Shown: positions 2,109 to 63,144 of the stretch, in pieces
Position numbering within the stretch: position 1 is the first letter of the stretch
Layout: every line of letters begins with the position of its first letter
DNA from: Candidatus Campbellbacteria bacterium GW2011_OD1_34_28
Lineage (GTDB): Bacteria > Patescibacteriota > Minisyncoccia > Phycocordibacterales > UBA12079
Direction of reading: 5' to 3'
Assembly: GCA_001029775.1 (NCBI GenBank)
Contig: CP011215.1
Coordinates: 357,722-421,721, forward strand
DNA length: 64,000 nucleotides
Notes under the pieces: generated by a model
What the model was told of the DNA's origin: nothing
Seen by the model: only the letters and a program-made list of their open reading frames with translations
Databases searched by the model: none
Position numbers and translations under genes: made by a program

Positions 2109-2678
2109 ATGGAAACATTAAAAGAAAAAAAGAATAAAATTTTTGATTTGATGAAAGGTGAGTTTGGTTATACAAATGTTATGCAAGCTCCAAAAATTGA
2201 AAAAATTGTTGTTTCTGTTGGTATTGGTTCTGTAAATGATAAAAATAAAATAACCCTTATTGAAGACCGAATCACAAAAATTACTGGACAAAAGCCATCT
2301 GTAAGAAAAGCAAAGAAATCAATCGCTGCTTTTAAATTGAGAGAGGGAACAGAAGTTGGATATCAAGTAACATTGAGAGGTCCAAGAATGATGTCTTTTT
2401 TTGATAAACTAGTAAATGTTGCATTGCCAAGAATGAAAGACTTTAGAGGTTTGACAACAAAAGGTGTAGATTCAATCGGAAATTATACTTTGGGATTGAG
2501 AGAACACACAATTTTCACAGAAGCATCTGATGAAGAATTGAAAAATGTTTTTGGTTTGGCAATTACAATTGTAACAACAGCAAAAACAAAAGAAGAAGCT
2601 ATTACTTTGTTAAAAAATCTAGGATGGCCATTTAAAAAGCAAGAAGATGAGCCAAAAAAGAAAAGAAAGATTAAATAA
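2109..2678 (+). CDS. rplE: 50S ribosomal protein L5
   Basis: 189 aa; conserved L5 core (KIVVSVGIG, GYQVTLRG). Confidence 0.95.
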   Translation: METLKEKKNKIFDLMKGEFGYTNVMQAPKIEKIVVSVGIGSVNDKNKITLIEDRITKITGQKPSVRKAKKSIAAFKLREGTEVGYQVTLRGPRMMSFFDKLVNVALPRMKDFRGLTTKGVDSIGNYTLGLREHTIFTEASDEELKNVFGLAITIVTTAKTKEEAITLLKNLGWPFKKQEDEPKKKRKIK

Positions 2679-2694
2679 TTTAAAATAAAATAGA

Positions 2695-2724
2695 AAAACC
2701 TCGGCTTGCGCCGAGGTTTTTCTA
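2695..2724 (+). terminator. Rho-independent terminator after rplE (cctcggc-ttgc-gccgagg + T-run)
   Basis: Perfect 7-bp GC stem followed by TTTTTCTATTTT. Confidence 0.6.
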
Positions 2725-2780
2725 TTTTAAATTATTATTTTTTTGTAATTCGAAAATTTTTAGGTAAAAATTGAAAATTA

Positions 2781-2810
2781 AAAAAGACAGGGACGAGCCC
2801 TGTCTTTTGT
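2781..2810. terminator. Bidirectional terminator hairpin gacaggg-acga-gccctgtc flanked by A-run and T-run
   Basis: Lies just 3' of the minus-strand ORF 2814-3119 and downstream of rplE. Confidence 0.5.
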
Positions 2811-2813
2811 GTC

Positions 2814-3119
2814 TTAATGACGGCAATTTGCCTCCGCGCTCTTTGTTTTTGGTTTTTTTTGTTGAAGGCGAGTTTTCGTTCCGACGATATTTCCGATAAT
2901 CTCGAATCTCTCATTGGGAAAAAATTTGAAGAGAGGACCTGCTTCAGACCGTGTTTCTCTAAAACACTCACCGCAAATGTGGTCGGCAATGATAAGGGAC
3001 TCTTTTTCTTTTCCGTTACGGGTAATTTTTTTTGTAAGGAATGTTTCTCCTACAAAAAATACCTCTCCAGGCAGTATGTCACTGTATGCCTTGGTTATAA
3101 TCGTCTCGTCCATGTCCAT
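2814..3119 (-). CDS. Hypothetical small protein (101 aa) with CxxC...CxH; non-ribosomal insert within the spc operon
   Basis: Minus-strand ORF with GAGAGGTGG Shine-Dalgarno 6 nt before ATG; its own terminator hairpin; no recognised family. Confidence 0.45.
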   Translation of the reverse strand: MDMDETIITKAYSDILPGEVFFVGETFLTKKITRNGKEKESLIIADHICGECFRETRSEAGPLFKFFPNERFEIIGNIVGTKTRLQQKKPKTKSAEANCRH

Positions 3120-3317
3120 TGTCCACCTCTCGCTCCGAAGGTTAATAAAAATACTTTTATCTGTATCAAGACTATCACAAATTTTTACTTCTTCAAAACT
3201 TGCAGGGACTCGGTTCCCGCAGGTTTAGTTTTTACAAATTTTTGTTAAAAAATACCAAGATTTAAACTTGGGTAGTGATGTATAAATAAAAACTAGATTT
3301 ATGTCGTAAGTAAGATT

Positions 3318-3373
3318 AAACCAAAAAATTACGAAATTTTCACGGTCGTGAAAATTTCGTAATTTTTTGGTTT
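3318..3373. repeat. Palindromic repeat, family P (AAATTACGAAATTTTCAC-GGTCGTG-...), variant copy
   Basis: Near-perfect 50-bp palindrome; related copies at 27927-27972, 28617-28663, 47794-47845. Confidence 0.7.
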
Positions 3374-3514
3374 GGAATTTGAAATTTGAAACATTTGAAT
3401 TTTAAAATCTTAAAATTACAAAAAGTAAAAAGTTCGCACGGGAGTTTTATTGAAGTATGAATTTTTTAATTTTTGACTTTAAAAATAATTGATATTTGAG
3501 AAATAAAAAATCAC

Positions 3515-3548
3515 CCAGCAGAAGCGCTTCTGCTGGGTGATGTGGTTG
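3515..3548 (-). terminator. Minus-strand rho-independent terminator (tcacccagcagaagc-gcttctgctgggtga + T-run on minus strand)
   Basis: 14-bp perfect stem; on minus strand followed by TTTTTTATTT. Confidence 0.6.
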
Positions 3549-4092
3549 GTGTCCTCGGACGCGTTCCGAGAACCCCCAGAGGCCGGCTTTGTGCCGGTTT
3601 ATCCGTGGAGGGGAATTTCACCCCTCCTGATCGATGGTCGCCGATGTGGGGCGTGTCCTTGACCCAAAACGCAGGCAATCTGACTTGCGTCTGTCGTTGG
3701 CACATGCCGTTGGCAACCTTCCTTGCCGTCGGTATCTCCACCGGAATCATCTATCGTGGCCTGCTAGCAAGCCACAACTCCTCCGGTACCGACTTCCAGA
3801 ATCCGTCAAGACGCTTTTTGTCTTCCATGGCGTGGCGGAACCAGTCTAAAATCGCTATGCGTGGCGATTCTCGACGGGATTTTCTCGTGCGACTGGCCCA
3901 GTATTTTAGGGCCGGCCGGTCTTGGAACTTCAGCCGAAGGCTATCGGGCAGGTGGTGGTGGCCCCGGCGACGATCGAAATCCGTTCGGGTCGCGGGGGTG
4001 CAGGGGTCTGGTTGTCGGCTTTCAGCAAGGTTTTGGCGATTGCGGGATGTCCTTTGTTCATGGCGTTTTTTCCTCCTCTGTTGTGGTTGGTG
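3541..4092 (-). other. GC-rich (~58-60%) ~0.55 kb non-coding island flanked by 11-bp direct repeats TGTGGTTGGTG; candidate structured RNA or foreign insertion
   Basis: GC far above the window background. All ORFs here are R/W/P-rich nonsense in every frame. Direct repeats at 3541-3551 and 4082-4092. Minus-strand terminator abuts it. Contains a 44-codon minus-strand ORF with a GGAGGA SD. Confidence 0.4.
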
Positions 4093-4430
4093 AAGAACAA
4101 TATTTTATAAAAACATCTTAGCACTCGTCAAAAATTTGTCAAGTGTTTATTTTGTATACATCTTTTGTTTTTATCGTATTTTTGTAATTCAAAATTAGAT
4201 ATTCAATTAAAATTTTAAATTTGAAATTACCTCCATACCCTAAACGCTATATGCTAAACCCTATTAGAATGTTGACTTTGAATCAGGTCTTTGATAAGAT
4301 ACTGTCTAGTTAATTAAAGCCTTGCGCTTTATTAGCGACGTAGAGTGAAAGAAATGAAAATTCATTTTCATTTCTGAACCGAGGAGCTAATATAAGGGCG
4401 CCTGCCGCTTTTATTTTAATTTTAAAAACA

Positions 4431-4616
4431 ATGGCAAAAAAATCAGTAATCGCTAGAGCAAATAGAACACCAAAATATTCTTCAAGAGTTGTTAGAAGAT
4501 GTTTTAAATGTGGCAGAAAACACGGATACATGAGAGATTTTGATTTGTGTCGTATTTGTTTCAGAGAATTAGCAAATGAGGGCAAATTGCCCGGAGTTAC
4601 TAAATCATCTTGGTAA
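4431..4616 (+). CDS. rpsN: 30S ribosomal protein S14, Zn-binding type Z
   Basis: 61 aa with [10 protein letters not shown]...CRICFRE zinc-ribbon. Confidence 0.93.
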
Positions 4617-4787
4617 AAAAAGAGCCAATAGCTAATAGCCGATAGCTGATAGTAAAAAATATGAAATTATTTTTGTAATATCCTATAAGCTATGAGCTGT
4701 CAGCTATAAGCTCGGTTAAATTCAATATAAATTACAAATATTAATAAATATTCGGGCTGTAGCAATGGCTAGACGACGAATAATAAT

Positions 4788-8483: not shown

Positions 8484-8800
8484 TAAAAAGGTGTAAGGAA
8501 TAAGGTATAAGTAGTAAGTGGGCGGGAAATTTGCTTCGCAAATTTCCCGCCCTGTTCGTTTCTAAATTTTAATATAATTCGTCTTTGCGAGCGAAGCGAA
8601 GCAATCCACGTCGTTCGTCGTGTTTTAAAAATTATTTCATTAAAAATTGTTTATAAATTAAAAATTATAAATTAAAAATTATAAATTAAAAATTTTAACT
8701 CCTATTTTCTAAATTCTCACTACTTACCCCTCACACCTTTCTCCTTACCCCTTACTACTTAGAGTTAATATGTTATAATCCAATTCATATAATTAAACAT
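8484..8800. repeat. Composite MITE-like repeat region with ~40-bp imperfect inverted ends
   Basis: 8492-8520 is the inverted complement of 8715-8760. Interior holds the hairpin gggcgggaaatttgc-ttcg-caaatttcccgccc, repeat family A (8581-8610) and a 14-bp AT tandem repeat x3 (8650-8695). Confidence 0.45.
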
Positions 8801-10635: not shown

Positions 10636-11165
10636 TGACGTGGATCGCGTCGGCTTCGCCTCGCGAAGACGATCCGCACGAACAACGTGGACCTGCCTCT
10701 TTTCTGAAAGAAAAGCAACGACACGGCGAGGCAGGTTGTTTCATTGCGTTCGCAATGACAAATTTCTAAAAGAAATTTGTCACCTTCGTCGTCATTGCGA
10801 GCGTAGCGAAGCAATCCATCATGAACTGTTTGTCCGAAATTAATGGACGTGGACCTGCCTGCCGGCGAGGCAGGTCGCTTCGGCTTCGCCTCGCGAAGAC
10901 GACCCGCACGAACAACGTGGACCTGCCTGCCGGCAGGCAGGTCGCTTCGTCGCTTCGTTGCACTCCGCTTCTCGCGAAGACGAAGCCACGTCGTCATTGC
11001 GAGCGTAGCGAAGCAATCCAGGACGACGAACAACTCAAAATAAACGACGTGGATTGCTTCACTTCGTTCGCAAAGACGGAATTTCTCAAAACGAAATTCC
11101 GTCACCTTCGTCGTCATTGCGAGCGTAGCGAAGCAATCCATAACAACTCGGTCTTGCAAAGAAAA
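10636..11165. repeat. Dense cluster of nested palindromic repeats (families A, B, C); non-coding
   Basis: Three forward copies of cgtcgtcattgcgagcgtagcgaagcaatcca (10788, 10990, 11110) plus an inverted copy at 11045. A 48-bp unit is duplicated (10650/10880). cctgcctgccggcaggcagg palindromes. Irregular spacing. Confidence 0.75.
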
Positions 11166-11347: not shown

Positions 11348-14300
11348 ATGAGGGAAGAAATTATTTTAAATAGTAAAAAATTTCTCTCACTGAAAACTGC
11401 TGCGAGAGAAACAAACTATACCAATGACTACATTGGTCAGCTTTGTCGTTCAGGCAAAATCAATTCTCAAATGGTAGGAAAAATTCGTTTTGTGGAAGAA
11501 GATTCCTTGCTTGAATATGTTAAAAAAGCGAATGGTTTTGTAGATATAAAATATGCAGATATTGAAAATATTGCTATCAAAAATAACAAGGATCTCGGCG
11601 ATTTCTCGTCTGTACGAGATACTGATTTTGCTCATTTCCGTCAAGACAAAGCCAACAGTTTGTATGTAAACATTTTTGAAACAGTTTTCTCTAAAAAAGT
11701 AGTTCATGTCTATATCGCAATACTTGTTTTGTGTGGATTGTTTTTTGGTAGTACTTTGGACATACAAGGAGGTTTTGCAAAAATAAAAAATAAATCTGCC
11801 GAAGGATTGGCAAAAATTGTCATGGGAGCAAAAGTGGCGTCTGACAAAATTTCGGAAACGACATTAGCTGTTGCAAATGGCGAGATTGATTACGAAAAAG
11901 TTTATAAAAATTACTCAAATTTTTTAGGAGAGATGTCCGTTGATTTTGCCGAAGGTGAAGTAAAGTATTTCAAAAATGTTACTGGTGTAGGTAGCAAAGT
12001 AACCGAAGCAATTTTTAATCCAAGCGATACTTTTGTAACAGTTAAAACAGAGACAAAAAAAATTCAGGGAAGTGTAGAAGAAATAATTTTTGGTGGTGTG
12101 ATTTATTTTGAAAATCTTTCTACTAATTTAATTCGTGTAAATGAAAAAATTTCTCAAAATGGTTTTGCACAAGAAAAAAATTTGGCATTGTTGAGTCAAG
12201 ACAGTTTTGGATTTACAGAAAAATTTGCAATTACTTGGTATAGAACGATATCAGGTTTTTTTAGTTCCGCTGAAAAAATAGCCGACAGCACGGACGAAGC
12301 TGACAGCGGACAGCTAACAACCAACAGCACAGACGAAGACGACTCGTCCGTCTTTGCGAGCGATAGCGAAGTAATCCAGGAAGAAGACGAAGCCAACAGC
12401 CAACAGCCAACAGCTAACAGCACGAACCAAAACACAACCATCGTTACAAACCCAATCAGAGAAATCATAAAAGAAACCGTTGTAGAAAGAGTTATCCAAA
12501 CATCAGGCGTCACACTGGAAGATCTACAAAAACTAAACAACGAACTCCGAAGTGAAATCTACAAACTCTCATCAAATACAAATGCTCAAATCACCAACAC
12601 CTACCAAGTCATCTCTGCTACTAACAACATCGACAATCTGGGTAGTGTCACAATCACCGACTCAAACATCAGTTCCTCAAATGTCTCAGGAACAGAACTA
12701 AGCTTTACCAACGGAACAATTCAAAACCTAACTGTCACAGGCACAGCTACCTCTACATACGGTGGCCCTATTTCTGCAACCAGTGGAACATACTCTGGCA
12801 ATCTAACCGTAACAGGCAACACCACTCTAAACACTCTTACCGTATCAGGAGACACAATCTTTGACACAGACACTCTTTACATCGATTCAATCAACAACCG
12901 TGTAGGCATCGGATCAACAACACCCACAGATACTCTTTCAATAAACGGAGCAACATACCTTGCACCAATATCAGCTCCATCAATCACAACCGACAGACTT
13001 TACAACATCTCCAATGATTTATACTGGGGTGGTAATCTTTTATCAGGTTCTGCCGTTGGTAATTGGACATCCAACGGAACAGATGTTTGGAGAGCATCAG
13101 GAAATGTGGGTATCGGCACATCATCACCATCTTCAGATTACAGACTATCTGTTCAAGGTAACACTTACATCAAAGGTAATCTTAGGGTAAACGGAAATAC
13201 TACAATTTCAGATAGCGGAGAATTAACAGTCGGAGACAAAGTTATCTCAGAAGGAGAAATCGGAGTTGGAACATCTTCTCCCTATGCCAAACTATCTATC
13301 CAAGGAACAACTGTTTCCACAACCACTTTTGGTATCTATGGTTTTGCAAATCAAACACAGTCTCTCTTTGATGTATATGACAATCCTACGAATAATTTAA
13401 ATGTGTTTAGAATCACGAGTGATGGCAGCGTCGGTATCGCTACATCATCACCTTTTAGAAAGTTGAGTGTAGAAGGTAGTGCGTGGATTAGTGGAGACTT
13501 AACAGCCAACAGTTTCACTGCTACTTCTTCAATGAGCGCTCCTTACTTTACTGCAACAGACTCAAGTGCAACAAGTACTTTTGCAGGAGGCTTGGCTGTT
13601 GGAACAAACAAATTTGTTGTTGATTATTCTACGGGAAATGTGGGGGTGGGGACGGTGAGTCCGGATCAAAAATTGGATGTAAATGGCTGGGGTCGTTTTG
13701 AGGGGGCTGGGTCTACAAATCGTAGTGATTCTGGTGCAATAGAGTTTTATAACAATAATGCTTCATCTCTTAATGTGCAAGCTCAAATAAAGGGTCTACG
13801 AGGTATAGGTTCATATAATTCTGGTCAATTGGGATTTTTCACTAGACTAGCGGGTACACTTTATGAGCGAATGACACTAGATGAAAACGGCAACGTCGGC
13901 ATTGGGACGATGGTGCCGGGATATAAATTGGATATTGCTGGTTCTGTGGCAGCCCCGACGACTTTACTTGTCCAAGCAGGAGGCATAACTGAAAATACTG
14001 GGAATGCTTTTCGTGTTTATAGAAACAGAGCTTCCTCTTCTACAAACGCTCCGTTAGTAGATTTTATAAATGATGCAGCAACGGATGACCAGCCACTTTT
14101 TAGACTTCAACAAGATGCACCAGCTGATATTCTCCAAGTTTTTGATGGAGCAACTCAAGTGTTTACAATCCTAGACGGCGGCAACGTCGGGATCGGCACC
14201 ACTTCACCTCTCGCAAAACTATCTGTCAAAGGAGCAGGAACAACCACAGGCATAAACTTCCAAACAACCAATTCGGCTGACACTCCGTTGGTGACTGTTT

Positions 14301-17300
14301 TGGATAGTGGGAATGTGGGAATTGGGACGGTGAGTCCGGGAGCGAAGCTTGAAGTTTTTGGCGACATGATAATAGGAGACGTGACGAATGGAAGCGTTTT
14401 TAGATATAATCCAACCACGAACACGATTGTGAACGGTGCACATGAAAATAGTATAGGTGTTGGTTCCTCAAATTCTATAATAGCTGCAGGAGGAGCTACT
14501 GCAAGTTCTAATATCAATAGTATTGGAACTGATTCTTACGTGACTACGATTAGTGGTGGATACGATAACACAATTGGAAATGACTCTCCTGCCGCAACTA
14601 TCAGCGGGGGTGCTCACCATCGAATAGATACAGGAGGAACACATGGAACAATAGGTGGTGGATCAACCAACACCATACAGGCCGGCGGAGATTATGGTTT
14701 CATTGGAGCAGGATTGAGTAATATTGTTGGAGGCACATATGCGTTCATAGGAGCAGGAAGCAACAATGTGGCTACAGGATTTAGATCTGCCGTCATGGGA
14801 GGTTATTCTAATGATGCAACGGGTCAATATGCCACCATTCCTGGCGGTTGGGGTAATGCCGCATCGGGTGATTATTCTTTTGCTTTCGGTTATAGGGCGA
14901 ATGCTGCCGCGACTGGCGTGGTTGTATTCAAAGATTCAGTAAACGCGCAATATACGGTTAATACAACTAATATGTTTGGAGCGAATTTCACAGGTGGTTA
15001 TCAGTTGCTCGGTGGTAACGTCGGCATCGGCACCACCTCACCTTTCGCAAAACTCTCTGTCAAAGGAGCAGGAACAACCACAGGTGTAAACTTCCAAACA
15101 ACCAATTCGGCTGATACTCCGTTGGTGACTGTTTTGGATAGTGGGAATGTCGGTATTGGGACGACGAATCCTGGAGCAATGTTGGAGTTATCTTCTATAA
15201 GTATTAATGGTTCAGTTTTACGTTTATCTAATAATAATAATACAATTGCCCAAGGTGAAGAATTAGGAAGTATAGAATTTTTTAGTGGAGATAATAGTGG
15301 TTCTTACCCAGATACAGTAAAAGCAAAGATTTTATCTCTCACTGAAGATTCTGTAAGTCGTGATGGAAATCTAGTTTTCAAAACTTCACTTTTGTCTGAT
15401 GCCTCACCAGTAGAAAGAATGAGAATAAATAGTAATGGCAACGTCGGCATTGGTTCCACCTCACCTTTTGCAAAACTATCCGTCAAAGGAGCGGGAACAA
15501 CCACAGGGATAAACTTCCAAACAACCAATTCGGCTAACACTCCTTTGGTGACTGTTTTGGATAGTGGAAATGTTGGTATTGGGACGACAGCGCCTAGTGA
15601 AAAATTAGAAGTTGCTGGAAATATTTTGTTATGGAATAGTGTCAATGATAATACATTAAGATTTAAAGATAATAATGTCGCTCACGGATTAACTGACCTT
15701 GTTTCTACATATATACATACTGAATTAAGAAATGAAGATGTGTCAGCAGGAGGAACAAGACTATTGGGGGTTACTGATCAGGATCTTGCCTCAGGAATTA
15801 ATTTGTATGGAGTGTTGGGTGTGACTGACCCAACTGATACTGTTCCTGCAATTAAAATTAATGGGGCAAAGAAAAACACTACTAATGTGCAATCTCTTGG
15901 AAACTTAGAAACAGTTTTTCAGGTTCAAAATAATACTTCCCCGTTATTGACTTTATTGGGAAATGGCAACCTCGGTATCGGCACCACCTCACCTTTTGCA
16001 AAACTTTCCGTCGTCGGAGATGTTGTTGCCGACTATTTCAACGCAACTTCAACCACAGCAACATCAACATTCGCTGGCGGTTTAACAGTGGGAACAAACA
16101 AGTTGGTGGTGGATAGGAGTACGGGCAACGTCGGAATCGGGACGGCGAGTCCGAGTCAAATGTTATCAGTTGGCGCAAGCAGTCAGTTTACGGTTACTTC
16201 AGCAGGTGTCGTAACCGGACAAAATTTTGCAGTAACCAGTGGGGCTTATGTAATAGATGTCAGTAACGGTTTAAGGTTGTATTCAAATGGTGGTCTGGGA
16301 ATAAAATTTACGACTTGGGATGGCAGCTATGTTGATAGGATGGTCGTTTCAACAACAGGTAACATCGGCATCGGCACCACTTCACCTTTTGCAAAACTTT
16401 CAGTAACAGGAACCGGAACAGGCACTGGCTCGGCTTTTCAAGTTGCCGATTCTGCCAACTCACCAAAATTTACTGTTTTGGATAATGGGAATGTGGGGGT
16501 GGGGACGGTGAGTCCGACTCAAAAATTAGACGTTAATGGAAATATTCATTTAGGATCCAGCGTTGATGATTTAACAACGAGAAATATATATTTGGCCTCC
16601 AATCGTTATTTAAGCCTTACTTCTACAGGGCTAGATGTTTCGAACTGGTATGGTTCCGATGGCAGCGCTCATAAAGTTGGGTTTAATGGGAAAGAAGTAT
16701 TGGTGGTTGGATCTAACGGAATTGTTGCTATAGGCAATAATATTAATGGCGGTCCTGGTGATTACATGCCTCTTGTTTTACAGGGAAATGAATCGGGCGA
16801 TGTATTAATTAAAAGCGATCAATATCAATGGGGCGTTGATACGCGTCCAATAAGAATAATTACAGATGACCCCTATGCCAATACCGGACAGACTTTAAAT
16901 GCTGGAAATATAGTTCTTCAAACAGGAATAGGGACAAATGGAGGAGCAACAGGAATAATAAAATTTGAAATTGGTGCATCTGGTTCTGAAAAAATGCGAA
17001 TTGACACTTCTGGCAACATCGGCATCGGCACCACCACCCCATGGAGAACTCTTTCCGTAAACGGAACAGCTGCTTTCACCGGTCTAACCAACGACGGAAC
17101 AGGTTATTACGCTTGTATATCAACCAACGGAGAACTAGCCACATCAACAACCGCTTGTGGAGCATCGTCAGAAAGATTTAAAACAAACATAAATGATCTA
17201 ACATACGGTCTAGACACAGTCCTTCAACTACGCCCTGTATCTTTCAACTGGAAATCAGACTTTATCAATTCTTCTTCAACTCAAATCGGATTTATTGCAG

Positions 17301-18079
17301 AAGAAGTTGATTTGTTAATCCCAGAAGTCATCGGACACGATGACAAAGGTAACATCATGAACCTTGATTATCCAAAGTTGACGGCGGTCTTGGTAGGTGC
17401 AATGAAAGAACTTAATACAAAAATCTCGGCTATTGCTTCTTCGACCCCAATCGTCTCAACAGGAATTGTTGATTCCGTTCTATCTCATCTAGAAAGTTTG
17501 GGTGCAAAATTTGTTGACGGTATTGCTTACTTCAAAGATGTTGTCGTAAAAACTTTGACAGCAGAAAAGGTTATCACAAATGGAATTGAGATGGTGGACG
17601 AAGTAACAGGAGAAATATATTGTGTGAGAATTCAAAACGGAGCGATGGTTAATATTGCGGGAACTTGTGATACAGCTAATAGCCAACAGCCAACAGCAGA
17701 ACCTTCAAACACCACTCCTCCCACAATAACAATCACAGGCAACAACCCAGCCGTAGTAGAAATAAACAGCAACTATATTGATCTAGGTGCTACAGCAGTA
17801 GACTATCAAGGAAACTCTCTAATAGTAGATACAATAGACGCAGATACAGTAGACACAACAACAGCAGGAGAATACACAGTTACTTACACAACATTTGATG
17901 GAACACTGACTTCAACAAGTACAAGAACAGTACTTGTTGAAGATTCAACAGCTGTAACAACAGAACCAGCAACGACAACAGAGCCAACAGCAACGACAAC
18001 AAATCCTGTGGTAGAACCGACAGCTACGACGACAGATCCAGTGGTAGAACCGACAGCGACAACGACAGAGCAGATTTAA
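11348..18079 (+). CDS. Giant (2243 aa) membrane-anchored fibre-like surface protein. Order: N-terminal HTH-like segment, TM helix, many GNVGIGTTSPxAKLxV and Hep_Hag-like beta-roll repeats, peptidase-S74 intramolecular chaperone domain, C-terminal Ig-like (DUF5011-type) domain and Thr/Pro-rich tail.
   Basis: Single uninterrupted ORF. The S74 motif is SSERFKTNINDL...PVSFNWKS...GFIAEEV...PEVI...DYPKLTAVLVGAMKELN. The Ig-like motif is ITITGNNPAVVEINSNYIDLGATAVDYQGN...GEYTVTYT. Confidence 0.85.
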   Translation: MREEIILNSKKFLSLKTAARETNYTNDYIGQLCRSGKINSQMVGKIRFVEEDSLLEYVKKANGFVDIKYADIENIAIKNNKDLGDFSSVRDTDFAHFRQDKANSLYVNIFETVFSKKVVHVYIAILVLCGLFFGSTLDIQGGFAKIKNKSAEGLAKIVMGAKVASDKISETTLAVANGEIDYEKVYKNYSNFLGEMSVDFAEGEVKYFKNVTGVGSKVTEAIFNPSDTFVTVKTETKKIQGSVEEIIFGGVIYFENLSTNLIRVNEKISQNGFAQEKNLALLSQDSFGFTEKFAITWYRTISGFFSSAEKIADSTDEADSGQLTTNSTDEDDSSVFASDSEVIQEEDEANSQQPTANSTNQNTTIVTNPIREIIKETVVERVIQTSGVTLEDLQKLNNELRSEIYKLSSNTNAQITNTYQVISATNNIDNLGSVTITDSNISSSNVSGTELSFTNGTIQNLTVTGTATSTYGGPISATSGTYSGNLTVTGNTTLNTLTVSGDTIFDTDTLYIDSINNRVGIGSTTPTDTLSINGATYLAPISAPSITTDRLYNISNDLYWGGNLLSGSAVGNWTSNGTDVWRASGNVGIGTSSPSSDYRLSVQGNTYIKGNLRVNGNTTISDSGELTVGDKVISEGEIGVGTSSPYAKLSIQGTTVSTTTFGIYGFANQTQSLFDVYDNPTNNLNVFRITSDGSVGIATSSPFRKLSVEGSAWISGDLTANSFTATSSMSAPYFTATDSSATSTFAGGLAVGTNKFVVDYSTGNVGVGTVSPDQKLDVNGWGRFEGAGSTNRSDSGAIEFYNNNASSLNVQAQIKGLRGIGSYNSGQLGFFTRLAGTLYERMTLDENGNVGIGTMVPGYKLDIAGSVAAPTTLLVQAGGITENTGNAFRVYRNRASSSTNAPLVDFINDAATDDQPLFRLQQDAPADILQVFDGATQVFTILDGGNVGIGTTSPLAKLSVKGAGTTTGINFQTTNSADTPLVTVLDSGNVGIGTVSPGAKLEVFGDMIIGDVTNGSVFRYNPTTNTIVNGAHENSIGVGSSNSIIAAGGATASSNINSIGTDSYVTTISGGYDNTIGNDSPAATISGGAHHRIDTGGTHGTIGGGSTNTIQAGGDYGFIGAGLSNIVGGTYAFIGAGSNNVATGFRSAVMGGYSNDATGQYATIPGGWGNAASGDYSFAFGYRANAAATGVVVFKDSVNAQYTVNTTNMFGANFTGGYQLLGGNVGIGTTSPFAKLSVKGAGTTTGVNFQTTNSADTPLVTVLDSGNVGIGTTNPGAMLELSSISINGSVLRLSNNNNTIAQGEELGSIEFFSGDNSGSYPDTVKAKILSLTEDSVSRDGNLVFKTSLLSDASPVERMRINSNGNVGIGSTSPFAKLSVKGAGTTTGINFQTTNSANTPLVTVLDSGNVGIGTTAPSEKLEVAGNILLWNSVNDNTLRFKDNNVAHGLTDLVSTYIHTELRNEDVSAGGTRLLGVTDQDLASGINLYGVLGVTDPTDTVPAIKINGAKKNTTNVQSLGNLETVFQVQNNTSPLLTLLGNGNLGIGTTSPFAKLSVVGDVVADYFNATSTTATSTFAGGLTVGTNKLVVDRSTGNVGIGTASPSQMLSVGASSQFTVTSAGVVTGQNFAVTSGAYVIDVSNGLRLYSNGGLGIKFTTWDGSYVDRMVVSTTGNIGIGTTSPFAKLSVTGTGTGTGSAFQVADSANSPKFTVLDNGNVGVGTVSPTQKLDVNGNIHLGSSVDDLTTRNIYLASNRYLSLTSTGLDVSNWYGSDGSAHKVGFNGKEVLVVGSNGIVAIGNNINGGPGDYMPLVLQGNESGDVLIKSDQYQWGVDTRPIRIITDDPYANTGQTLNAGNIVLQTGIGTNGGATGIIKFEIGASGSEKMRIDTSGNIGIGTTTPWRTLSVNGTAAFTGLTNDGTGYYACISTNGELATSTTACGASSERFKTNINDLTYGLDTVLQLRPVSFNWKSDFINSSSTQIGFIAEEVDLLIPEVIGHDDKGNIMNLDYPKLTAVLVGAMKELNTKISAIASSTPIVSTGIVDSVLSHLESLGAKFVDGIAYFKDVVVKTLTAEKVITNGIEMVDEVTGEIYCVRIQNGAMVNIAGTCDTANSQQPTAEPSNTTPPTITITGNNPAVVEINSNYIDLGATAVDYQGNSLIVDTIDADTVDTTTAGEYTVTYTTFDGTLTSTSTRTVLVEDSTAVTTEPATTTEPTATTTNPVVEPTATTTDPVVEPTATTTEQI

Positions 18080-24264: not shown

Positions 24265-24435
24265 TAGCAACTAGCAACTAGTTTTTAGCAAACGAATGAC
24301 GACGTGGATTGCTTCGTTACACTCGCAAAGACGGATTTTGCGAAGCAAAATCCGTCACAAATTTTCTTTGGAAATTCGTCTTTGCGAACGAAGTGAAGCA
24401 ATCCACGATAGTTTCTAAAAACTAAAAACTAATAT
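24265..24435. repeat. Inverted pair of family-A repeats flanking the hairpin gacggattttgcgaagcaaaatccgtc
   Basis: gacgtggattgcttcg...cgaagtgaagcaatccacg. Confidence 0.75.
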
Positions 24436-62283: not shown

Positions 62284-62433
62284 TTGTATTTAAAAATAAA
62301 ATAAAAAACCCCGCACGAATGCGGGGTTAGACAGACGGGGAGAGGTTCTTGTTCTCCAACCAGCTTCGTTGACGAAGGGGTTGAAATTACCCTTTTAGGG
62401 GACTCGTGGTCCCACCCTGCTGTCTTTTCGAGG

Positions 62434-62655
62434 CTACTCGTTGATCGGAGGAAACGCCTCCGCAACAAGCTTGTTCGCCATATCGGTGGCGAATTCCCGG
62501 GCCTCATCGGGGCTGATTCTCAGCTCAGCTGCCGTCGTCCCGATTTGTCGGGCCACCACGTTGGGCATCAAACTGCCGATGCCCTTTGACCGCGCCTGGT
62601 TTAAAACAAGCAGGTACGCGATCTGGTTTCTTCTTTCTTCTGTCATCTTTGCCAT
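62434..62655 (-). CDS. GC-rich (~58%) small hypothetical protein (74 aa), possible DNA-binding regulator
   Basis: GGAGG SD 7 nt before ATG. Inverted repeat TTCACGAAGGATTCGTGGAA upstream at ~62680. Minus-strand terminator ccccgcattcgtgcgggg + U-run at 62293-62316. Confidence 0.5.
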   Translation of the reverse strand: MAKMTEERRNQIAYLLVLNQARSKGIGSLMPNVVARQIGTTAAELRISPDEAREFATDMANKLVAEAFPPINE

Positions 62656-63144
62656 AGGAAACCTCCTTTTCGGCAATTTTTCCACGAATCCTTCGTGAAT
62701 AGGGTAGCAGAGAATCCTCAAACTACAATACAATTATACATCATATATTTGTATTTGTAAATGGTGTGAGTTTCATAAAATTCACAAACTTGGTTTTTGC
62801 TTAATACTTATACCTTAATCCTTAAGCCTTGGTTTCTATACCCTAACCGCTACACCCTATACCCTGAATGAGTTTTCCACAATTGACAAATCTTTTTGTT
62901 GACAAACTGTTATTTTTTAGATAAACTCTTACCCATCATATATCGGATCTAAGATTGAGTTTCGGCAGAACCCCTGATATTTATTAATAGCGCGCACATT
63001 AATAAAACCGTCCGAGGCAGAAGGATGGTCAAATTTATTTTGTTTAAGGGTGATATTAAATAAGAAAAAGTTAGAGAAACCTCTTTGAGGTGACTTTTTT
63101 GTTTTAGTATTGTCAATTTTATTAGCGAAAAAATAGAAAACATC

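Follow-up and report, generated by a model that had tools for sequence, protein, structure and literature searches.

A GC-rich orphan island in the split rplE-rpsN junction of a Campbellbacteria genome: a candidate strain-specific RNA gene

In Candidatus Campbellbacteria bacterium GW2011_OD1_34_28, two genes of the spc ribosomal-protein operon, rplE (2109-2678; Pfam Ribosomal_L5 and L5_C) and rpsN (4431-4616, zinc-ribbon-type; Pfam Ribosomal_S14), are separated by 1752 bp, and within this gap lies a compact island of GC-rich DNA. What is this island, and how did it come to be there? The question was addressed in a 64,000-nt stretch of contig CP011215.1 (assembly GCA_001029775.1, positions 357,722 to 421,721), hereafter the window. 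A jump to about 58 to 60% GC over about 550 bp between the two genes had been described from the sequence in the original prediction, and it was recovered here, with 58.0% GC at positions 3541-4092 against 35.05% for the window as a whole. Only three stretches of the 64 kb exceed 60% GC in a 150-nt window, the island among them. The identity of the two neighboring genes also held, but the description of the gap was incomplete, as it further contains a small gene (orf101), a palindrome and a separate rpsN promoter. The explanation toward which we lean, tentatively, is that the island forms the main part of an accessory RNA gene, specific to this strain and transcribed on its own. The features on which this argument turns are the following.

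3294 to 4271: strain-specific replacement segment of 978 bp, comprising the island, its own promoter and terminator and AT-rich spacers, defined by comparison with the sister-strain locus L057
4142 to 4115, minus strand: sigma-70-like promoter, TTGACA-16-(TG)TAAGAT, matching the consensus at 10 of 12 positions, with a predicted start near 4108
4082 to 4092: 11-bp direct repeat, promoter-proximal copy (CACCAACCACA in the RNA)
3542 to 4092, minus strand: GC-rich core, forming most of a structured RNA predicted to be about 600 nt long (from composition, minimum free energy z-scores, absent codon periodicity and no Rfam match)
3930 to 4061, minus strand: small open reading frame (ORF) of 43 aa plus stop (MNKGHPAIAKTLLKADNQTPAPPRPERISIVAGATTTCPIAFG), with ATG at 4061 and stop at 3932-3930
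3541 to 3551: 11-bp direct repeat, terminator-proximal copy
3541 to 3510, minus strand: intrinsic terminator, a 14-16 bp stem followed by the U-run UUUUUUAUUU, homologous to the terminator of a small RNA in the relatives' loci L057 and L002

As judged from consensus matches, a promoter-like site and a strong terminator bracket the GC-rich core exactly on the minus strand. The terminator hairpin at the low-coordinate end had been recognized before and was found again with its full stem, and the promoter-like site is an addition to the earlier description. Together, the two signals predict a minus-strand transcript of about 600 nt, running roughly from 4108 to 3505. In the RNA gene that we favor, transcription would start at the sigma-70-type promoter and end at the intrinsic terminator, and the transcript would fold into a closed multi-helix structure in which the 5′ third pairs with the middle and 3′ parts. 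Translation of a 43-aa peptide from the 5′ part is a further possibility, which would make this a dual-function RNA.

The L5 protein places the organism within Patescibacteria/Paceibacterota, close to Campbellbacteria. The island was compared with relatives' loci (labels beginning with L; 1.8 Mb in total), among them the locus of a sister strain (L057; JGI Ga0155757_102) and that of a more distant relative (L002), whose L5 protein is 96% identical to that of the window. Both lack the island. The flanks of L057 are about 94-98% identical to the window, the S14 protein is 100% identical, and the DNA next to the break is free of mismatches up to window position 3293 and again from 4272. Between these points, 978 bp of the window (3294-4271) stand against 301 bp of different sequence in L057 (5186-5486). 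Since the sister strain does without it, the island is dispensable, and its absence from both loci indicates that it is accessory and probably imported.

The 301-bp segment of L057 holds a transcription unit of its own, a minus-strand unit of about 150 nt with the promoter TTGACA-16-TAGTAT and the terminator CCCCCAGCAAAGCGCTTTGCTGGGGG, and L002 carries a counterpart.

L057:5183-5338 and L002:6546-6690, minus strand: small-RNA gene of about 140-155 nt with its own promoter and terminator

This small RNA comprises four or five tandem hairpins, with one compensatory pair between the L057 and L002 copies; it has no Rfam match and was found only in these two among 58 loci searched. The promoter and terminator of the island occupy positions equivalent to those of this unit in both relatives, and the -35 region of the island promoter (cTTGACAaa) aligns with the small-RNA promoter there. 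The island is not an expanded version of this RNA, as a covariance model of the small RNA matches only L057, L002 and the terminator in the window (20 bits), and the promoter-side spacers are not alignable beyond the promoter boxes. This failure to align the window's spacer (4093-4271) points to the import of an entire divergent allele rather than to a clean insertion of 541 bp into an allele like that of L057. By parsimony, the small RNA would be ancestral, and its body would have been replaced by the island in the lineage of the window. The most likely routes are recombination with a divergent allele and the insertion of foreign GC-rich DNA, so that the island RNA probably stems either from foreign DNA or from such an allele. 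What is left of the replacement would be the terminator, which is shared, and the 11-bp repeats on either side.

In this clade of Patescibacteria the spc operon is split at the rplE-rpsN junction, which recurrently carries cargo. Measured between the ends of tblastn matches, the spacer varies from 80 to 4040 bp in the 32 species-level relatives having both genes (at most 152 bp in 10 and more than 1 kb in another 10) and from 55 to 3274 bp in metagenome loci. About a third of the relatives have the two genes directly adjacent (gap about 55-150 bp), and the cargo is unrelated between lineages. This situation contrasts with that in Gammaproteobacteria and Bacilli, in which the operon cluster is strongly conserved (PMC8046335). 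The island unit would occupy an expression-ready slot in a hypervariable "landing pad" derived from the split of the spc operon at rplE/rpsN.

Other cargo in these spacers (L002-L039 and L057-L099) includes membrane proteins, small ORFs and a regulator of PaaX/Cas2 fold (L002 5063-5614). Two small genes of 54-67% GC are found in the same spacer of relatives that are themselves AT-rich, one of 45 aa in L017 (6018-6155, plus strand) and one of 74 aa in L012 (5657-5881, minus strand). Both have their own Shine-Dalgarno sequence and terminator, a strong bias in GC content at the third codon position (GC3) and no family match, and the L012 gene also has a promoter-like site.

Folding predictions single out the minus strand. 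Without its terminator, the minus-strand core reaches a minimum free energy of -203.9 kcal/mol, against -177.4 +/- 5.8 for its shuffles (z = -4.5), and none of the 150 shuffles was as stable; for the plus strand, z = -0.6. When G-U pairs were forbidden, z was about -2.0 on both strands (P about 0.03). When they were allowed, the minus strand gained more than its shuffles and the plus strand less, a pattern that would follow from the minus-strand RNA being the one that folds. Taken alone, the 179 nt at the 5′ end, including the small ORF, gave z -0.2, and the remaining 388 nt gave z = -3.5. In the partition function of the full transcript, four long-range helices with base-pair probabilities of 0.93-0.99 connect the 5′ third with the middle and with the 3′ end, and the 3′ half forms a series of local hairpins. 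The minus-strand RNA is thereby predicted to be strongly folded, with the following helices.

4080-4075 with 3582-3577, 4030-4023 with 3728-3721, 4019-4014 with 3793-3788, and 4011-4007 with 3800-3796, minus strand: predicted long-range closing helices, spanning 3577 to 4080
3551 to 3787, minus strand: predicted local hairpins of the 3′ half, with pairing probabilities of at least 0.92
3787-3781 with 3746-3740, minus strand: stem enclosing a second one, 3776-3768 with 3763-3755
3718-3712 with 3642-3636, minus strand: stem
3627-3621 with 3613-3607, minus strand: stem GGAGGGG-UGAAAUU-CCCCUCC
3597-3593 with 3587-3583, and 3573-3565 with 3559-3551, minus strand: two stems

Most of the island does not look like a protein gene, given a flat GC content by codon position in both its long frames (p = 0.46 and 0.23), the absence of relatives and a stop-free length near chance. 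The original prediction had dismissed every frame as nonsense apart from a single ORF led by a Shine-Dalgarno sequence. The small ORF stood, but two longer frames had been overlooked: a stop-free plus-strand frame of 183 codons that spans the island (3542-4093) and has no Shine-Dalgarno sequence, and a minus frame of 197 codons interrupted by one TAG (3753-3751), which a -1 shift out of the ATG frame would enter. A frame as long as 183 codons occurs with P = 0.07 in dinucleotide shuffles, and stops over the six frames number 19 against 24.9 expected (P = 0.065). Among 5.8 billion protein clusters, the plus frame (183 aa) and the two pieces of the minus frame (117 and 79 aa) matched only themselves. 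The island frames and a frame-fusion construct showed no protein homology, with nothing in Pfam, PHROGs, PADLOC or NCBIfam, and the translations are rich in R, W, C and P and not protein-like.

The small ORF (4061-3930) deserves separate consideration. Its Shine-Dalgarno sequence, GGAGGA at 4076-4071, lies 9 nt ahead of the ATG, its GC3 is 0.72, and neither a homologue nor a family was found for the 43-aa product (Pfam, PHROGs, PADLOC and NCBIfam). The island might accordingly be a small-protein cassette, that is, an mRNA for the peptide in which the hairpin-rich remainder of about 390 nt serves as a stabilizing or regulatory 3′ untranslated region (UTR), a reading that we regard as possible but doubtful. 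The lack of excess structure in the 5′ region is as would be seen for a translated stretch, and GC-rich small genes of the kind described above for L017 and L012, as well as a comparable gene of 73 aa in the window (62434-62655), speak for it too. However, only 24% of the island is taken up by the ORF, which in comparable cassettes accounts for most of the length, and codons 11-18 are predicted to lie within the long-range helices. The GC3 excess of the peptide is not significant at n = 43; in the window's orf73, L012 orf74 and L017 orf45, it is significant at 45-75 codons (p = 0.001-0.004).

The 73-aa gene of the window belongs to a second GC-rich cassette (62297-62760, minus strand), with up to 62% GC, a promoter-like TTTACA-17-TATAAT, a GC-rich 3′ UTR and a terminator. 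The gene itself is an orphan led by a Shine-Dalgarno sequence (GC3 0.69, p = 0.004), and the cassette transcript folds well (z -3.9) and has no family match.

The long frames could also be the remains of a foreign, higher-GC coding fragment that was captured in the hotspot and is now decaying as a pseudogene or junk, with the one-stop minus frame as an example. We consider this unlikely. The single stop in 197 minus codons, the stop-free plus frame, the reduced number of stops over six frames and a weak local trend to the lowest GC at position 2 of the one-stop minus frame are what such a fragment might leave behind. Nevertheless, the stop depletion is not significant, codon-position GC is flat, neither frame has a homologue in 5.8e9 clusters, Pfam or PHROGs, and the amino acid composition is not that of a protein. 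Furthermore, the exact bracketing by promoter and terminator would be unexpected for a random piece of DNA.

Among known RNAs, a scan with cmscan of positions 2600-4700 at E<=10 gave only trivial hairpin matches of at most 23 bits inside 3552-4092, a scan of the whole window at the Rfam gathering threshold gave two tRNAs only, and ARAGORN found neither a tRNA nor a tmRNA in the island. The earlier judgment that resemblances to RNase P and tmRNA were too weak to name the element was therefore sound, as the motifs do not score. Along with these two, SRP, 6S, OLE, GOLLD, ROOL, HEARO, raiA, group I and II introns and ribozymes were rejected, with no covariance-model match at E<=10. Searches of the island against phages and plasmids (blastn, distant mode) returned nothing, those against the relatives' loci (blastn and nhmmer) returned no homologue, and three of four island-derived motifs had no match in IMG/VR. 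A literature search found no account of either an element of this type or this Patescibacteria hotspot.

The fourth motif, the 21-nt hairpin GGAGGGGUGAAAUUCCCCUCC, had 17 exact matches in IMG/VR with unrelated flanks, and the stem GGAGGGG-N7-CCCCUCC with any loop had more than 120. With unrelated surroundings and a stem that often recurs around other loops, this is a generic hairpin and not a sign of homology. As a separate observation, this pairing of a Shine-Dalgarno-like arm with an anti-Shine-Dalgarno-like arm is frequent between genes in viral contigs, often just upstream of genes (L040-L056 and L100-L178), and the loop in the 17 exact matches is UGAAAUU.

The exact 11-bp direct repeat TGTGGTTGGTG was found at both edges of the island (3541-3551 and 4082-4092), as originally predicted. 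It has no further copy in the 64 kb, and allowing one mismatch lengthens it to 14 nt. When the 611-nt region was dinucleotide-shuffled 1000 times, a direct repeat of at least 11 nt had P = 0.043, and one with a spacing of at least 500 nt had P = 0.002, so that the repeats are unlikely to be due to chance. Their position at both GC/AT boundaries is consistent with a non-autonomous mobile element, MITE-like (miniature inverted-repeat transposable element) or small and integrative, of 541 bp that would have entered between a promoter and a terminator already in place, with duplication of an 11-bp target. Additionally, the terminator-proximal copy lies in sequence weakly resembling the 3′ end of the L057/L002 small RNA (CCAAC...CCCAGC), as the original target would. 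Even so, such an element is rather improbable. The breakpoints against L057 (3293/3294 and 4271/4272) lie outside the repeats, and no empty rplE-rpsN site with a single copy of the target was found in the relatives' spacers. Excision of the segment would leave merely a transcript of about 60 nt, and no transposase or recombinase is present. The original prediction had offered a structured RNA gene or a foreign insertion bounded by an 11-bp duplication as alternatives; of these, the non-coding-like character, the minus strand, the accessory status and the position outside the conserved operon were upheld, and the clean, repeat-bounded insertion was not.

Like MITEs, the island has short exact direct repeats, resembling a target-site duplication (P about 0.002), at both ends of a compositionally foreign segment of about 0.54 kb. 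Unlike them, it has no terminal inverted repeats, since the 14 inverted-repeat pairs in 3250-4300 include none that connects its two ends, and it is present as a single copy, with neither further copies nor an empty site in the 64-kb window and the 1.8 Mb of relatives' loci.

Targeting of the IS200/IS605 type (IS, insertion sequence) had been proposed because of the adjoining hairpin and of a RAYT gene (REP-associated tyrosine transposase; REP, repetitive extragenic palindrome) at 21.5 kb. This gene was confirmed, as ORF 21550-22251 matches Y1_Tnp (PF01797, E = 2e-6). Thus, the island resembles these systems in adjoining a hairpin and in having a RAYT-like Y1 gene 18 kb away. However, elements of the IS200/IS605 family insert without target duplication, whereas the island is flanked by a direct repeat. 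The ORFs of the island have no Y1_Tnp match in Pfam, and the REP-like unit CATTGCGAGCGTAGCGAAGCAATCC, with five copies in the window (8583, 10793, 10995, 11115 and 24306), is found neither in nor beside it. Consequently, a link to IS200/IS605 or REP/RAYT elements was rejected.

Unrelated to the island, a REP-like, GC-rich repeat cluster occupies 10640-11141, with dispersed copies at 8583-8607 and 24306-24330. It consists of three copies of GTCGTCATTGCGAGCGTAGCGAAGCAATCC and two other repeat families, alongside the RAYT-like Y1 gene, and is directly followed by an ORF of 2243 aa (11348-18079, plus strand) with locally raised GC.

A bolder extension of the RNA gene reading is that the 541-nt unit between the identical CACCAACCACA motifs is the first example to be seen of a class of large structured RNAs not described before. 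These would travel as protein-free cassettes and land in expression-ready promoter-terminator slots of Patescibacteria; the unit would either be inserted or exchanged with an 11-bp duplication, or be processed at the two motifs to a unit-length, possibly circular RNA. We regard this as a long shot. Finally, an assembly chimera or contaminating GC-rich fragment, which the abrupt GC change and the orphan sequence could suggest, is very improbable, as the same junctions recur in about 5 contigs and in an NCBI Campbellbacteria metagenome-assembled genome, and a host-type AT-rich promoter and terminator fit the edges of the island exactly. One of these records (L001) is 100% identical over 3500-4110, and the 79-aa frame of the island is annotated in the NCBI Campbellbacteria record; since it is on record in about 5 contigs, the island is not an assembly artefact.

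Several points weigh against the RNA gene that we favor. The strand asymmetry in z is partly compositional, because the plus strand is rich in G and U and its shuffles fold well. The predicted structure comes from single-sequence thermodynamics, without covariation support, because no homologue was found, whether in Rfam, phages, plasmids, the IMG/VR motif scans or the relatives' loci. Promoter-like sites are not enriched in the region (5 found against 5.2 expected). The well-placed Shine-Dalgarno sequence and ATG, together with the GC3 of 0.72, suggest at least some coding function, and strain-specific orphan DNA can also be functionless. The island is best described as a candidate new orphan RNA gene rather than as a new class.

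The remainder of the gap between rplE and rpsN holds the following features.

2686 to 2729: bidirectional terminator after rplE
2814 to 3119, minus strand: orphan gene orf101 (101 aa), between rplE and the island
3318 to 3373: perfect AT-rich palindrome with 27-nt arms (AAACCAAAAAATTACGAAATTTTCACG/...), between orf101 and the island terminator, in the replaced segment
4272 to 4300, plus strand: rpsN promoter, TTGACT-17-TAAGAT, at the right edge of the variable segment, kept in L057 and L002

The separate promoter makes the rplE/rpsN junction transcriptionally independent. The protein of orf101 is 100% identical in L057 and 65% identical in L002. Among 1.84 billion proteins it has a single representative homologue, and it matches no family in Pfam, PHROGs, PADLOC or NCBIfam. 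It is present with or without the island and thus is not specific to it; being identical in the island-less strain and itself an orphan, it was ruled out as the functional partner of the island. A type III toxin-antitoxin system, in which an RNA antitoxin of tandem repeats and a terminator lie just ahead of an endoribonuclease toxin gene, was rejected on similar grounds: the island has no tandem repeats, and the downstream orf101 has its own promoter-like site, no PADLOC match and the same sequence in L057. The conservation of this orphan beside a variable RNA slot in three genomes is an observation in its own right.

For the palindrome, L002 has a homologous hairpin with the same TTTTCACGGTCGTGAAAA center and different arms, which indicates that the arms changed and the pairing was kept. 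It is absent from L057; being common to L002 and the window and lost in the sister strain, it implies that the locus changed independently in the sister lineages. On the other side of the variable segment, 3′ of the conserved promoter, the rpsN leader (4310-4430, plus strand) contains an insert of about 90 nt relative to L002, with a hairpin at 4340-4378 and a terminator-like hairpin at 4392-4414 just ahead of the rpsN start, identical in L057. This insert could be an attenuator or an S14 autoregulatory leader.

Patescibacteria are episymbionts with reduced genomes, and to our knowledge almost nothing is known of their non-coding RNA. If the RNA of about 600 nt is real and functional, any function in trans being putative, it would add a large structured RNA from this group. 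The split spc operon is of interest as a recurrent landing pad for independently expressed cargo, such as small RNAs, GC-rich small ORFs and regulators, and as a useful place to seek accessory functions in these organisms. The island itself is an orphan of a single lineage, and its worth is that of a lead rather than of an established new class.

Among known systems, the dual-function small RNAs RNAIII, SgrS and SR1 are structured regulators that also serve as mRNAs for small peptides. The island resembles them in its predicted structured RNA, in the small ORF with a Shine-Dalgarno sequence near the 5′ end and in the intrinsic terminator. In contrast, its RNA would be about three times longer than most of them, and both its translation and its target are putative.

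Searches of GC-rich intergenic regions (GC-IGR) target large, GC-rich structured RNAs in the long intergenic regions of AT-rich bacteria (PMC11109978, PMC12286853). The island shares with the large RNAs OLE, ROOL, GOLLD and raiA a length of about 0.55-0.6 kb, an intergenic position and a GC content far above the genome average, as well as promoter-like and terminator signals of its own, stable hairpins, long-range helices and folding beyond that of shuffles. Unlike them, it has neither a covariance-model match at E<=10 nor a detected homologue, and whereas those RNAs are conserved across genera, the island is found in one strain lineage and is absent from the sister strain, whose flanks are about 96% identical.

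The closest parallel for the replacement itself is the exchange of rpsN by recombination within a conserved ribosomal-protein cluster, described in Streptococcus (PMC8046335). Both cases show a sharp switch from identity to non-homology at two breakpoints, with conserved genes flanking it, at the same rplE-rpsN position. They differ in what was exchanged, as here a non-coding transcription unit rather than an rpsN isoform appears to have been swapped, and in the junction, which here is a recurrent cargo site across a clade of Patescibacteria.

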